This document shows, in pieces, positions 38,710-43,457 of a stretch of DNA of 49,230 bases. The number at the start of each line of letters is the position of its first letter. Position 1 is the stretch's first letter. This DNA comes from Candidatus Methanomethylicia archaeon (GTDB lineage Archaea; Thermoproteota; Methanomethylicia; CALHIW01): positions 1-49,230 of the forward strand of contig JAWBQF010000020.1 of NCBI GenBank assembly GCA_038845975.1. Reading direction: 5' to 3'. Both the position numbers and the translations under genes were made by a program. The notes under the pieces were generated by a model. That model was given only the letters and a program-made list of their open reading frames with translations, made no database searches and was not told the origin of the DNA.

Positions 38710-39474
38710 CTATTTAAGCTTTAATGTTTTAATCGGGTTCTCATAGGATATTTTTAAAGCTTCCTTAGCTAAATCCATTCTCTTAAGAGTATTTACTGCT
38801 TCAAATACTGCAAGTGGATTACTGGGGTCTCTTCCAGCATCACTATTTAAAATTATGTTTTCACATCCGTGCTGAGCTATTATATCAATTACGTCCTTAA
38901 TGTTTAGCTTATCTTCTTGAATTGTTAATCCAGCTTTAAATCCCTCCGATATTATTACTTCAACAGTTTCTCTTGAGGCATGATCTATAATAGTAAGTTC
39001 AGGATTAACCCTACTCTTTTTAGCTATATTTATAATTTTATTGGTTGCTTGAAGTTTAAGACTTCTTGGAGTATGTATTATAACTGGCTTATCAAGTCTA
39101 GATGCTATTTTCAGCTGTTCTTGAAGTATTTCAAACTCTAATGTTGAACAGTTTTCAACTCCAATTTCTCCAAGAGTTAATGCATTATTGGTTGAGAGAT
39201 ATTCCTCAACGATTTTAAGTGTTTCTTCAAGCTTTCTTTTTGGAATACATCTTGGATGAATACCAACACCACTATAAGCTTTTAAACCAGCTCTTGCAAA
39301 TCTTTCAGTTTCAGCTTCACAAAGCCATTTAAACATATCGTTAAATGTATCTGGACCACTAGGTCTAACTGGGATATAGGCAAGATTTAAAACGCCAATA
39401 CATCCCGAATTCCTTAAAGACTCAAGAGTATTAAAACCGCTAAATTGATGATGTGTATGTGGATCAAACCACAT
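38710..39474 (-). CDS. TatD-family metal-dependent hydrolase
   Basis: It has DPHTH, GIHPR, LGEIG, IHTPR, IDH and NSD. Confidence 0.9.
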   Translation of the reverse strand: MWFDPHTHHQFSGFNTLESLRNSGCIGVLNLAYIPVRPSGPDTFNDMFKWLCEAETERFARAGLKAYSGVGIHPRCIPKRKLEETLKIVEEYLSTNNALTLGEIGVENCSTLEFEILQEQLKIASRLDKPVIIHTPRSLKLQATNKIINIAKKSRVNPELTIIDHASRETVEVIISEGFKAGLTIQEDKLNIKDVIDIIAQHGCENIILNSDAGRDPSNPLAVFEAVNTLKRMDLAKEALKISYENPIKTLKLK

Positions 39475-39542: not shown

Positions 39543-39968
39543 TTAGGCTGTATTGTTTAGATTGATTATTTCATCATTTACATCGTGAACTGGAAAGGCT
39601 GGAACTATAGATCTCCCTATTCTAGCTCTAGCTGGTGATAGGATAACTAGCTTAATTCCTCTTACTACACATAATCCCTTAAGTATACCTACTATTCTTC
39701 TAGCTATGTTTAGTGCGAGACCATTGCTTAGTGATGTAAACCCCTGGAGATCTATAACTATGTAGTTAATGTTTTGGGGTATTATTAAATCTATGTTTTT
39801 CTCCAGTATTAATGGATTATCATATATGTGTATTAAATCATGTTCATGAGATGATATTTCTGCAAGCTTAAAGTCTGAGGTTATTAATAGTTTTGGAGTT
39901 AGTTTTTTAATAGCATCTATAATCCTACATTTACTACCATACATTAGTATTGCTCTAATCATCTTCAA
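39543..39968 (-). CDS. Hypothetical protein, possible degenerate RecA-fold
   Basis: It has AILMYG with no P-loop, a Walker-B-like YIVID, and LKGLCVVRGIKLVILS. It overlaps the SWIM gene. Confidence 0.55.
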   Translation of the reverse strand: MKMIRAILMYGSKCRIIDAIKKLTPKLLITSDFKLAEISSHEHDLIHIYDNPLILEKNIDLIIPQNINYIVIDLQGFTSLSNGLALNIARRIVGILKGLCVVRGIKLVILSPARARIGRSIVPAFPVHDVNDEIINLNNTA

Positions 39969-40299
39969 ATCTTCTCTGTTTATGAAGCTCTAAAAGTCTT
40001 AAAAGTATTACAGCTCCAACATGTGTACATACTTCTCTTCTTCTCCTATTAGACCATTGTTTTAATGGATTATAACAGCTACATTCATATCTTCTATTTT
40101 CCTCATCATATTTCACGATGTATATTTGGTCGTAGTCACCCATTCCAGGTCTTCCACGAATAAGCCATGTATTCATGTTTTTAGAGCTTTTCCTTACATC
40201 TCTCAATCTAGCTTTACATCTCATAAAGAATGATTTACTCTTCCTGGAGTATAGTTTTTCTAGATGTTTAATAGCTTCTTCAATTATTTTTCTATTCAT
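39955..40299 (-). CDS. SWIM zinc-finger protein
   Basis: YECSC...VCTHVGAV gives CxC-xn-CxH, and the protein is strongly basic. Confidence 0.85.
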   Translation of the reverse strand: MNRKIIEEAIKHLEKLYSRKSKSFFMRCKARLRDVRKSSKNMNTWLIRGRPGMGDYDQIYIVKYDEENRRYECSCYNPLKQWSNRRRREVCTHVGAVILLRLLELHKQRRFEDD

Positions 40300-40304
40300 A
40301 ATTG

Positions 40305-41252
40305 TTAAATTACTCCCTCAACTACTACCTTGAATCTACAGCTTCTCGGCGGTAGTGATGGGCTATCTATTACTTCAGCTCTTCCCTCCTGTTCTTTAGA
40401 TATTCTATGTAGCCATATTCTATGAGTTGTTCCATGAGCTAATATATGTCCTCCCGTCGGTAGGTCTGATCCTCCCCATGGAGTTGGTGATGCTTGAACC
40501 TCGTTTGTTACTGCTATGTATGCTTTAAATATTTTCGCTATTCTTAAAAGCATATCAAGCATGTAGTTTAGAAGCTGCTGTCTCTCTGCTAGCTTCTCCC
40601 TACCAGTAAGCTGTGATCTAGCTTTAGCTATTATTGAATCTACAACTACTAGCTTAACGTTTTGATACGCACATATTTCAGCTATATCGTTTACCGCTAG
40701 TATCTGTTCTTCAAACGTTATTGGCTTCTTTACGATTATAGCGTCAAGTACTGATTCAATATCACATTCAAATCTTCCAGCTATAGCTTCAATTCTATCA
40801 GGTCTAAATGTTTCCTCAGTATCTATGTATACAGCTATCTTAGACTGCCCTCCACTCCATAGTGTTTTAAATGCTGTAACACATAGTTGATGACATATCT
40901 GTGTTTTACCTGCTTTTGCAGGTCCAGTAAATTCATAGATCGCTCTAGGCTCTAATCCCCCATCAAGCATTAAGTCTAAGCTATAACATCCAGTTGTAAG
41001 TCTTTTAGCTTCAACCATTATTTTCCTTAACTCCTTAGCAGTATATGTTGTATGTAGCCCAACAAATTCTTTAGCATTATAGATTATTTGTCTAGCTTCA
41101 GATTCACCAAATCCCTTATCTACTAATTCAAACGTATTCATTAATGCAAGAATATACGGTGATCTTATACCTACTTCAATAAGCTTCTCTGCTTTAGCTT
41201 CTCCTACTCCACGTATCTTCATAAGCTCTCTCCTTACATTATCCAAATCCAT
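40305..41252 (-). CDS. RadA/Rad51-family recombinase paralog, full length with HhH N-terminal domain
   Basis: It has IRGVGEAKAEKL, TTGC..LD.MLDGG, GPAKAGKTQICHQL, YIDTEETFRPDRI, VVDS, LAERQQLL and GGHILAH. Confidence 0.9.
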   Translation of the reverse strand: MDLDNVRRELMKIRGVGEAKAEKLIEVGIRSPYILALMNTFELVDKGFGESEARQIIYNAKEFVGLHTTYTAKELRKIMVEAKRLTTGCYSLDLMLDGGLEPRAIYEFTGPAKAGKTQICHQLCVTAFKTLWSGGQSKIAVYIDTEETFRPDRIEAIAGRFECDIESVLDAIIVKKPITFEEQILAVNDIAEICAYQNVKLVVVDSIIAKARSQLTGREKLAERQQLLNYMLDMLLRIAKIFKAYIAVTNEVQASPTPWGGSDLPTGGHILAHGTTHRIWLHRISKEQEGRAEVIDSPSLPPRSCRFKVVVEGVI

Positions 41253-41255
41253 TAT

Positions 41256-41612
41256 TCATCCCTCTTTAAGCCTCATAATTATAAGCTCTAAATCTGCCTT
41301 TACAGCTCCAAGCTTTGATAAAGCCCATAATATAGGTTTACTTTGTTGCTCCTGTGTTGCTCTAATAATACAGTTAACTGTTGCCTCAGCAAACTCCCTC
41401 CACTTCTCAGCAGATATATCTGCTTCAAAAATTGTTTTCCTCAACTCTAATGATCTTTTAGGAGTTAATACTATTGATATCCTAACGTTGCCTTTAAACA
41501 CTGAGAAAAATAGATGGATCCATCCCTTCTCAATAGGTTTTAACGGTATACTTACTTTTAAAGGTCCATGATACTTAACGTCTCCAATAGATTTACCTAC
41601 GTTAAAAGCCAT
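41256..41612 (-). CDS. Hypothetical protein
   Basis: This 118-aa ORF has 3-4 bp spacing to both neighbours and an SD-like GGGGTGA upstream. Confidence 0.7.
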   Translation of the reverse strand: MAFNVGKSIGDVKYHGPLKVSIPLKPIEKGWIHLFFSVFKGNVRISIVLTPKRSLELRKTIFEADISAEKWREFAEATVNCIIRATQEQQSKPILWALSKLGAVKADLELIIMRLKEG

Positions 41613-41616
41613 ATCT

Positions 41617-42849
41617 TCACCCCCTCCTATCTGAACCGTCTACCAAGTCTCTAGGTGGAGTAGATTTATAATCGTCAAGCAATTTAAAACCGGAAGACGT
41701 AATTCTATAGTAGTATCTATAGTCTTTCCCAATTTCGTTTTTAATTAGATTATAGGCTGAAAGCTTCTCGATAAGTTTTACAGCTTCATCACTTCTCAAT
41801 CCCCTATCATACATTATAAATGTTATTAGTGAATCTCTAGTTAATGCTCCATTACTTAATACTTCAAGAACTGCAATAGCATCTCCAGTTCTCTCTCCAA
41901 ACAGTCTTGAAATTGCTGTAGTATGTTCCTCTATAGTTTCTTTAGGCAGTGGTCCAATCACATCTTCAACATTAAGTTTTTCAATAACTATTCTAGATAT
42001 GTTTTTCAAGTTGATACTATATAGGCTTCCACTATTGAATTTAACATCAACTACTGAAACTTCTTCTCCACTAGTTAATTTAATGTTTTCCCTATCTACT
42101 CCAAGCTCTTCAAGAAATCTTAGGGTTTCAGAGTTTATATTTGATATTAATATTTCCTTAAAGTCCTCAATTATGTATTTAGCAGTTTTAATGCTTGATG
42201 ATGATAATACAATATTTCTCTCTTGAATTCTACTTCTAAATTCACTTTTAAAGTAGGGGTTTACAAGTATTGGTTCCAGTAGGGATGAATCATCAACAAC
42301 TATAGCTTCTCTAAATCTTCTCATTAGAGATAGGAGTACTAGTATCTTATGGCTGATTGATGGTAGTAGGGATAAATCTATAAGATTAAAACATGTTTTA
42401 GGTATGTTCTCTTTATTTAAGGCTTTACCTGTAATCCCTATTCTTAATGAGTTTAGGAATGATAATAGTAGATTTATTCGTATTCCTCCAGTGGTTGCTC
42501 CCCCATATTCTGTAATGTTGTCAATTATTGACTGTATATCTATGTTATTTCTAGTATATGACTGGTATAGTGCTTCATGTAAAGCTTTAAACTCTAAATC
42601 TCCAATATTTAATGCTAGCTTGAAATCTAAAGCTAAACTATAACATTCATCAATGTTTTCAACCCTAAATATGTTTATTGAAGCATTATGTCCAAGTCTT
42701 AGAAGCCTTAAATCCATGTTGTATCTATGTAGAGTGTAGAGTTTTCCATTAAGATCTATGATTGAATAGCTATCTAGATTCTTTAATATATGCCATATAA
42801 TACTTAAACGTTCCTCTAATCCTCCAATACAGAGGATAATGTTCTCCAT
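41617..42849 (-). CDS. HerA/VirB4 (DUF87)-like protein with degenerate Walker A and C-terminal wHTH
   Basis: NIILCIGGLEER lacks GKT. It also has IIDLNGK, INIF, LIDLS, IVVDD and a C-terminal KLSAYNLIK...YYRITSSG. Confidence 0.6.
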   Translation of the reverse strand: MENIILCIGGLEERLSIIWHILKNLDSYSIIDLNGKLYTLHRYNMDLRLLRLGHNASINIFRVENIDECYSLALDFKLALNIGDLEFKALHEALYQSYTRNNIDIQSIIDNITEYGGATTGGIRINLLLSFLNSLRIGITGKALNKENIPKTCFNLIDLSLLPSISHKILVLLSLMRRFREAIVVDDSSLLEPILVNPYFKSEFRSRIQERNIVLSSSSIKTAKYIIEDFKEILISNINSETLRFLEELGVDRENIKLTSGEEVSVVDVKFNSGSLYSINLKNISRIVIEKLNVEDVIGPLPKETIEEHTTAISRLFGERTGDAIAVLEVLSNGALTRDSLITFIMYDRGLRSDEAVKLIEKLSAYNLIKNEIGKDYRYYYRITSSGFKLLDDYKSTPPRDLVDGSDRRG

Positions 42850-43457
42850 TATGTAAACACCTCTTTAAAGAGTATAGGGATTTCGGAAGCTTTAAGGATC
42901 TTAAATCCTGAATTAAACGATGATGTAATTCCTAATCCAGCAGCAACCTCGCTTACAACCTCATCGATAGTTTTACGTTTCAACAATCCACATGGTAAAG
43001 TATCTCTTGAACTTTTAACAATATTGAAAATCTTTAACTCATTACTTTCCGGATTTGTTGAAATTATAATTTGTCCTCTAATACTCATTCTTAACATATC
43101 ATTAATTAAAGCCCCAATATGATCTAATCTATCTCTAGGTAATTGAAGCATTAAAACGCCAATACCTACAATATTAAAGAAGCCATATCTAATAACTACA
43201 TACGGTAAATCCTTACTTACACCTATAAATTCAAGCCTAGCATTATCGATAATGTTTAATCTATTAATATCTATATGCTTTAAAATAGGAATTATAAGCT
43301 TTGAAGATTTATTTTTAGAACTCCGCCATTTAATTCTAGGAATTCTCTTAATTACTACATATACTACATATGGTAGTATAAGTATTATACCTACCCATCT
43401 AAGCATAAGGATTAGTGTAATGATTAGGATTAGCATTATAATATTCATTGCTCTCAA
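42849..43457 (-). CDS. Hypothetical membrane protein
   Basis: An N-terminal hydrophobic hairpin is followed by a basic stretch. The gene overlaps the next one by 1 bp. Confidence 0.7.
   Translation of the reverse strand: MRAMNIIMLILIITLILMLRWVGIILILPYVVYVVIKRIPRIKWRSSKNKSSKLIIPILKHIDINRLNIIDNARLEFIGVSKDLPYVVIRYGFFNIVGIGVLMLQLPRDRLDHIGALINDMLRMSIRGQIIISTNPESNELKIFNIVKSSRDTLPCGLLKRKTIDEVVSEVAAGLGITSSFNSGFKILKASEIPILFKEVFT

Follow-up and report, generated by a model that had tools for sequence, protein, structure and literature searches.

A SWIM-type zinc-finger gene and a predicted minimal RecA-fold gene next to a RadA paralog in Candidatus Methanomethylicia: a possible Shu-like accessory complex

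Rad51-paralog complexes, and Shu in particular, are regarded as eukaryotic regulators of recombination, and their mechanism is still debated. A 49,230-nucleotide (nt) stretch of contig JAWBQF010000020.1 from a hot-spring archaeon, Candidatus Methanomethylicia (hereafter, the window), raises the question of whether a compact set of proteins of this kind is encoded in archaea. On its minus strand, a gene for a 315-amino acid (aa) Rad51-family protein, a gene for a 114-aa protein with a CxC…CxH motif, and a 141-aa open reading frame (ORF141) follow one another. An earlier note, made from the sequence alone, had described the last two as a pair resembling Shu complexes and the Rad51-family protein as its client recombinase. 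Shu complexes are described as a SWIM protein with Rad51 paralogs (PMC5727457, PMC6316741), and Shu1 as a minimal Rad51 core of four strands to which the SWIM domain of Shu2 is bound (PMC5727457). For the window, we give about an even chance to the reading that the three proteins assemble into a heteromeric complex assisting recombination, in the manner of Shu and Rad51-paralog complexes.

Predicted folds and motifs of the three proteins

ORF141 is predicted to be a RecA/Rad51-like alpha/beta core without a P-loop. The best AlphaFold2 (AF2) model, calculated from a 7-sequence alignment, had a mean predicted local distance difference test score (pLDDT) of 86.5 and a predicted template modeling score (pTM) of 0.84, and it began with four strand-helix units; a long helix and a further strand came next, and three short strands closed the C-terminus. 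Foldseek against PDB yielded 30 matches at E <= 0.001 with RecA/Rad51-family cores on top, and all matches listed were to RecA, RAD51, DMC1, RAD51-paralog complexes, or the RecA-like Sak4. VIA-align, a structural search independent of Foldseek, was performed over 48,161 chains, and ranks 1–9 were all occupied by RecA-family proteins (Z 10.2–11.7; 124–139 of the 141 residues aligned). The matches comprised XRCC3 in the RAD51-XRCC3-RAD51C complex (9omy_X; Z 11.7, 137 residues aligned, root mean square deviation 2.6), DX2-CX3-RAD51 (9q25_D; Z 11.0), BCDX2 (8faz_X; Z 10.8), DMC1, Rad51, and RAD51C-XRCC3 (8gja_A) (Z 10.7 each), RecA (Z 10.6), and Sak4 and RadB (2cvf) (Z 10.2 each). Shu1 (Z 8.0) and Psy3-Csm2 (Z 7.8) were also matched.

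The structural guess of the earlier note for ORF141 was borne out, with the reservation that the model is a prediction. The lack of a P-loop was confirmed, since a Walker A motif (GxxxxGK[ST]) after strand 1 was found neither in ORF141 nor in any of the 21 rows of its family alignment; the pattern [GA]xxxxGK[ST] occurred in two of these rows, but at residues 94–101, far from the P-loop position. YIVID, which had been read as an hhhhD strand, forms a predicted strand at residues 69–73. D73, a candidate Walker B acidic residue at the end of this strand, was invariant in the 7-member subfamily, and its column was not conserved in the wider 21-row alignment. The element likened to a helix-strand of RadA, LKGLCVVRGIKLVILS, was predicted as a helix (residues 82–103) followed by a strand (106–110), in the order found in the RecA core.

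In a search of 5.8 billion proteins, the ORF141 subfamily consisted of seven protein clusters with 56–70% identity and 56 invariant columns. ORF141 had no Pfam or relevant NCBIfam match at E <= 1, and the subfamily profile searched against 1.84 billion representatives retrieved itself and only two weak, unrelated-looking matches. Used as a single query against 40 other genomes, ORF141 yielded no true relative; relatives were detected only by the family profile (A6, 21 rows). ORF141 is the shortest form of the family, and the downstream ORFs of the relatives comprise 146–215 aa.

We accept the 114-aa protein as a SWIM-type zinc finger. As the earlier note had proposed, it carries the SWIM motif: CxC-x15-CxH was invariant in all 13 aligned homologues, down to 35% identity, and was followed by xG[A/S]V. 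The residue three past the motif His was Ala in seven and Ser in six homologues, with Ala in the window protein, and C73, C75, C91, and H93 are the presumed zinc ligands. The AF2 model (pLDDT 87.8) contained two N-terminal helices, a small sheet ending at CxC, and a long C-terminal helix starting at CxH. The two-helix part (KS.SW..RC..RL.D) is conserved in the family and lies outside the Pfam SWIM model. Although the 114-aa protein had no Pfam match at E <= 10, one of 13 relatives matched SWIM at E 0.25, and a Pyrobaculum-like homologue (family profile E ~1e-28) matched PF04434 with 17.5 bits (E 0.003), below the cut-off of 19.6 bits. Foldseek with the 114-aa model gave nothing at E <= 0.001. 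A search of the 5.8-billion-protein set for longer fused forms of the family returned only a 281-aa, HNH-bearing protein, and the lack of further ones is weak as negative evidence.

The SWIM motif of Shu2/SWS1 is given as CXC…Xn…CXHXXA (PMC6316741). The relation of the 114-aa protein to Shu2/SWS1 is described here as a resemblance, and no claim of orthology is made. Generic SWIM domains often share the Ala after CxH, and the CxC…CxHxxA motif therefore does not discriminate Shu2/SWS1.

The 315-aa protein matched Pfam Rad51 (1.5e-56) and carries an N-terminal helix-hairpin-helix (HhH) domain, Walker A, Walker B, and L1- and L2-like regions. Walker A was kept in 11 of 11 rows of the paralog alignment (A5), residues of the L1 and L2 regions were conserved, and the protein is apparently competent for ATP and DNA binding. 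Its score of 192.9 bits compares with 341 bits for the canonical Rad51-family gene of the same genome, located on another contig (C7). It passed NCBIfam PRK04301 (276.8, cut-off 259) and failed TIGR02236 (251.9 versus 361.15). Canonical RadA, with approximately 300–343 bits, was present in all 41 sampled genomes of the class, which are kin, so that counts among them are not independent; SWIM-adjacent genes scored 184–270 bits. In a quick maximum likelihood tree of 36 sequences (LG+G4, with support from the Shimodaira-Hasegawa-like approximate likelihood ratio test, SH-aLRT, only), 17 canonical-type RadAs, including those of two Thermoproteales-like genomes, formed a clade (SH-aLRT 97), and all 13 SWIM-adjacent copies fell outside it; the exact place of the window's copy is unsure because of its long branch (1.08). 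The Phe of the FxxA motif drives self-polymerization, and the Phe of the canonical FxxA stretch was replaced in 10 of 10 aligned paralogs. Judged by these comparisons, the 315-aa gene encodes a divergent full-length RadA paralog and not the main RadA of the organism, and the earlier identification of this neighbor as the client RadA did not hold.

Further RadA genes were noted in the class. Family f4, which is without the SWIM gene, carries a different full-length RadA paralog, divergent as well (approximately 230 bits), which formed a separate clade (SH-aLRT 100); examples are located at G004:C1:407444-408157 and G007:C1:275772-276485 (L068 and L069). Two RadA genes of canonical strength (approximately 300–336 bits each) were found together with the SWIM-adjacent paralog in genomes G012, G021, G023, G030, and G032.

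Gene order and conservation of the cluster

The three genes stand at the end of six minus-strand ORFs in series (Table 1), separated by gaps of 3–5 nt or overlapping; the spacing ranges from an 8–14-nt overlap to a 5-nt gap. The overlap of the SWIM gene with ORF141, as stated in the earlier note, was found to be 14 nt if ORF141 starts at TTG (39968) and 8 nt, ATGATTAG, if it starts at ATG (39962). The latter coincides in the alignment with the initial Met of the six remaining subfamily members and is likely the true start, which would give a product of 139 aa. Internal starts of the cluster are preceded by purine-rich, Shine-Dalgarno-like stretches. Four public metagenome runs on hot springs, each from a different study, had contigs carrying the 4.2-kb stretch with <=4 substitutions and without indels; some of these runs may be connected with the material from which the window derives. 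The stretch lay whole on one contig in three runs and was distributed over four contigs, with approximately 60 bases uncovered, in the fourth. No RNA run was among those that carry it. Because the contigs of four runs carry this stretch, the gene arrangement is not an assembly accident of this record.

Relatives of the family were found in Methanomethylicia/Culexarchaeia and other Thermoproteota metagenome-assembled genomes. Among the 41 class genomes, the SWIM gene was present in 23, and by coordinates a Rad51-family gene was located immediately upstream on the same strand in all 23. The ORF141-type family occurred as a single copy in 16 of the 41 genomes, which always adjoined the SWIM gene on its downstream side; a contig end separates the two genes in G003. 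Neither gene was found in family f4 (0 of 13 genomes). The six-gene order, namely an approximately 200-aa hydrophobic protein, an approximately 440-aa protein, an approximately 120-aa protein, the RadA paralog, the SWIM protein, and the core, was visible in 13 of 19 loci (L018, L020, L021, L022, L023, L025, and L028–L034), with the downstream core gene of L023 being unclear. Seven loci (L018, L020, L021, L022, L025, L029, and L030) were flanked by the same housekeeping-like genes, and this argues that the operon is a stable part of the chromosome. The Shu-like pair of the earlier note stood as far as the predicted RecA fold, the SWIM motif, and the co-conserved overlapping genes are concerned, and it fell as a stand-alone two-gene unit.

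In G131, the SWIM and ORF141-like domains formed one 265-aa ORF. Profile comparison (hhalign) of A6 with the C-terminal half of this ORF gave E 1.6e-4 and a probability of 50% over 131 collinear columns. A fusion of this kind is a classic, though indirect, sign that two proteins interact; here it was seen once, in a draft genome.

Several variants of the locus were also observed. In some relatives (L032:4296-4793, L033:3680-4177, L034:4234-4602, and L024:3754-4101), the cluster is extended by a seventh gene, an ORF with a C2H2-like zinc finger (…CPICGKTFSK…H…H…), and in L024 this ORF comes directly after the SWIM gene. In L057:3194-4332 (G303), L026, and L027, the place of the full-length RadA paralog before the SWIM gene is taken by a gene for a 265-aa KaiC/RadA-like P-loop protein (GMPGTGKT), and a core gene is missing downstream.

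Across the phylum, the SWIM family was found in 51 of 301 sampled genomes. Outside the class, it occurred in GC-rich genomes resembling Pyrobaculum, Thermoproteus, and Thermofilum, where the proteins were often multi-copy (up to nine, some with in-frame stops), comprised 190–245 aa, and had an extra C-terminal domain. By coordinates, 5 of 6, 3 of 4, 2 of 4, and 1 of 2 SWIM copies in G057, G266, G202, and G141, respectively, had a same-strand Rad51-family gene at a distance of 1–4 kb. In G266, a cassette (L050:2295-5338) encoded an AAA/TrwB-like ATPase (305 aa), a SWIM protein (194 aa), a 140-aa ORF, and a Rad51-family protein (328 aa, 74.7 bits). Comparison of A6 with this 140-aa ORF by hhalign gave no useful match. 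The association of SWIM and RecA-family genes is wider than the six-gene operon and is not universal. Several copies of the cassette per genome were observed in Pyrobaculum-like genomes such as this one, and similar places were seen in G057 and G202; the cassette may be element-borne or an expanding gene family.

Table 1. Genes of the six-gene cluster, listed from the first to the last gene, with their positions in the window
Gene	Position	Strand	Description
ORF202	42849..43457	-	First gene of the cluster; small, hydrophobic N-terminus
ORF410	41617..42849	-	Family of ~440 aa; C-terminal winged helix; no Walker A
ORF118	41256..41612	-	Conserved ~120-aa protein, directly upstream of the RadA paralog
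RadA paralog (315 aa)	40305..41252	-	Full length: HhH N-domain and ATPase core
SWIM-type zinc-finger protein (114 aa)	39955..40299	-	CxC…CxH motif
ORF141, minimal RecA-fold protein (141 aa)	39543..39968	-	Predicted fold; no Walker A

A proposed accessory complex and its alternatives

In the proposed accessory complex, the SWIM protein, ORF141, and the RadA paralog would be made together and in fixed proportion through translational coupling. What the analysis shows are the folds, as predictions, together with the motifs, the operon, its co-conservation, and one gene fusion; we infer that these proteins bind one another physically and act on RadA. The subunits would associate via SWIM-core and RecA-type interfaces, with ORF141 as a catalytically dead, minimal RecA-fold protein and the SWIM protein bridging or stabilizing the RecA-fold subunits. 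Through the paralog, the complex may bind single-stranded DNA or the end of a RadA filament, and it may assist the canonical RadA, whose gene lies on another contig, in the loading, stabilization, or remodeling of its filaments.

The closest parallel is provided by the eukaryotic Shu complexes (yeast Shu2-Shu1-Psy3-Csm2, human SWS1-SWSAP1, and worm SWS-1/RIP-1/RFS-1), which, like the operon, combine a small SWIM protein with RecA/Rad51-fold paralogs. Some of the Shu paralogs, such as Shu1, resemble ORF141 in being a minimal core without a working ATP site, and the SWIM motif has the form CxC…CxHxx[A/S] in both. On the other hand, no sequence homology is detectable between the two sets, and the archaeal proteins, known here from genes and models, are encoded in a prokaryotic operon with translational coupling and include a full-length HhH-bearing RadA paralog that Shu lacks. 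Shu2 orthologues are called conserved "from archaea to humans" in one sentence of PMC5727457, which cites other work for it, and archaea are mentioned just in passing or in a reference in passages of PMC3084681 and PMC6551702. Within the searchable full-text literature, which did not extend to Godin 2015, Martin 2006, Godin 2016, and Makarova 2002, no archaeal SWIM gene beside a radA paralog was described.

Other recombination proteins and SWIM proteins share parts of this plan. RadB of Euryarchaeota and aRadC/Ral of Sulfolobales are RecA-fold accessory proteins of archaeal recombination, and RadB was among the best structural matches of ORF141. RadB and aRadC have approximately 220–260 aa and retain Walker A and Walker B, whereas ORF141 has 141 aa and no Walker A, and the 315-aa paralog differs from them in keeping the N-terminal HhH domain; to our knowledge, they have not been described with a SWIM partner. 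The vertebrate BCDX2 and CX3 complexes, which provided the best structural matches of ORF141, are hetero-oligomers of RecA-fold subunits acting on the recombinase filament. Their paralogs, in contrast to ORF141, are ATPases of approximately 280–350 aa without a SWIM subunit, and no sequence relation was detected. Generic SWIM proteins (PF04434; ZSWIM8 and MuDR/FAR1-type) have the same 15-residue CxC…CxH spacing and a sheet followed by a helix carrying CxH, and the 114-aa protein is set apart from them by its lack of a Pfam match and its own N-terminal two-helix part.

If the accessory-complex reading is correct, a compact archaeal version with thermostable proteins of 114, 141, and 315 residues in one operon would offer a simple system for biochemistry and structural studies. 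Such a version would also touch on the question of whether SWIM proteins and degenerate RecA folds were combined before eukaryotes or on two occasions. In addition, the 315-aa protein represents a class of RadA paralogs new for archaea, whose members are of full length, carry the HhH domain, and always have a SWIM protein as partner gene.

Several observations weigh against the accessory-complex reading. The ORF141 model was built on just seven similar sequences, and the pLDDT values of the five AF2 models were 86.5, 81.0, 77.2, 76.9, and 39.8. Neither ORF141 nor family A6 showed sequence homology to RadA or to any PDB chain, and hhalign of A6 with A5 gave a probability of 0.1%. The link between the ORF141 subfamily and the longer downstream ORFs of the relatives was also weak (hhalign E 2.7e-4, probability 41.8%, 133 collinear columns); their position supports this link. 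For the 114-aa model, VIA-align over the 48,161 chains gave weak matches to ZSWIM8 (rank 1, Z 5.5, 19% identity) and Shu2 (6dex_B; rank 5, Z 3.8, 89 residues aligned, 22% identity), and Z < 8 may reflect just a common arrangement; even so, the high ranks of these two known SWIM proteins count in favor of the reading. No SWIM protein, Shu2 included, was retrieved at E <= 10 when the sequences of all PDB chains were searched with the profile of the SWIM family (A4). Seven of the 23 SWIM-positive class genomes (families f5 and f7) had no A6-type partner by this profile, and the RecA-core subunit is therefore not obligatory. The single fusion in G131, a metagenome-assembled genome, could stem from an indel introduced during assembly. 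In G232, none of nine SWIM copies was near a Rad51-family gene, and one of them lay beside a gene for a family-B DNA polymerase (646–694 aa range; L053:3020-5487; Pfam DNA_pol_B 1.2e-27). Finally, the three upstream genes, encoding a probable membrane protein, the Walker-A-less ~440-aa protein, and ORF118, have no counterpart in Shu complexes.

Among the alternatives, a self-contained second recombinase system deserves the most attention, although we regard it as rather unlikely. The RadA paralog would then be a strand-exchange enzyme and the SWIM protein and ORF141 its dedicated loader or cap, leaving the canonical RadA unassisted; as an extension, the putative membrane protein and the putative HerA/FtsK-like protein would perhaps tie the system to DNA import/export or to an element-borne function. 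The HhH domain, both Walker motifs, and the L1-/L2-like residues kept by the paralog are in favor of such an enzyme, whereas the replacement of the FxxA Phe in every aligned paralog, given the role of this motif, speaks against it. The cluster starts with genes for the hydrophobic ~200-aa protein and the ~440-aa protein, and the feature neighbors of the latter (ORF410) in ESM Atlas were DUF87/HerA/TrwB-like clusters (0.87–0.90, rated as leads only), but Walker A was found in none of the 15 rows of the ~440-aa family (alignment A7). Likewise, the Pyrobaculum-like genomes with several ATPase-SWIM-140-aa ORF-Rad51-family cassettes, some with in-frame stops, are to be set against the single-copy cluster of the Methanomethylicia class with its same housekeeping-like flanks in seven loci; the multi-copy cassettes leave room for an element-borne function. 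A PADLOC scan gave no significant defense-system match (best, mad8 at E 1e-3 on the RadA paralog), and a scan of viral contigs with SWIM patterns found no relative, which also argue against this system.

We consider it improbable that the RecA likeness of ORF141 reflects a generic three-layer alpha/beta (P-loop-NTPase-like) fold. In that case, the SWIM protein and ORF141 would be unrelated to recombination and would serve, for example, in regulatory DNA or protein binding, with the RadA paralog merely a neighbor. ORF141 lacks sequence homology to any RecA family, and CobU (Z 9.7) and thymidine kinase (Z 8.3), clear non-RecA folds, were among its top VIA-align matches; nevertheless, at least 21 of the 24 rows listed with Z >= 8.0 belonged to the RecA superfamily by title, and the nine highest ranks were all recombinases or their paralogs. 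A wide variety of unrelated proteins contain SWIM domains, as illustrated by ZSWIM8 as the best match and by the relative beside the family-B polymerase gene, but the SWIM gene adjoined a Rad51-family gene in every SWIM-positive class genome, and the association is met again in another order. This reading is disfavored because recombinases dominate the structural matches and because the adjacency to Rad51-family genes is strict. That ORF141 is no real gene and overlaps the SWIM gene by chance, as its shortness, the TTG as first start, and the lack of a family match might suggest, is extremely improbable in view of seven protein clusters with 56 invariant columns, a syntenic homologue in 16 genomes, a confident fold prediction, and a reading frame without indels in other assemblies.

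Upstream genes and neighboring features

The product of ORF202 is probably membrane-bound, and relatives likewise have an ORF202-like ORF of approximately 200 aa ahead of the cluster; ORF202 had no match in Pfam or NCBIfam. In the ORF410 family, an LGxNAS motif is conserved, and an hhhhDE-like strand is kept in many members. The C-terminal winged helix of ORF410 matched Pfam HTH_45 at E 3.6e-4, below the cut-off, and the A7 profile of the family gave nothing significant against PDB sequences. As a lead only, this family may be a HerA/FtsK-type protein that has lost Walker A and gained a C-terminal winged helix. ORF118 always lies directly upstream of the RadA paralog (synteny in L006–L014 and L018–L034), and it had no Pfam or NCBIfam family and no ESM Atlas neighbor.

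We also infer roles for these three upstream genes. A bolder and rather doubtful proposal would combine the putative membrane protein, an inactivated HerA/FtsK-like winged-helix protein, ORF118, the RadA paralog, the SWIM protein, and the dead RecA core in a six-protein, membrane-tethered machine coupling membrane DNA handling to recombination. As part of the same proposal, the pairing of SWIM proteins with RecA paralogs in TACK archaea would be the evolutionary forerunner of eukaryotic Shu.

A TatD-family hydrolase gene (38710-39474; Pfam TatD_DNase, 5.3e-17) lies on the same, minus strand of the window, 68 nt downstream of ORF141. Its position is not conserved in relatives, and it is therefore probably no part of the cluster. 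In the Thermofilum-like genome G113 (L054:891-3416), a SWIM-family gene, as in G232, was located directly beside a family-B DNA polymerase gene (646–694 aa).

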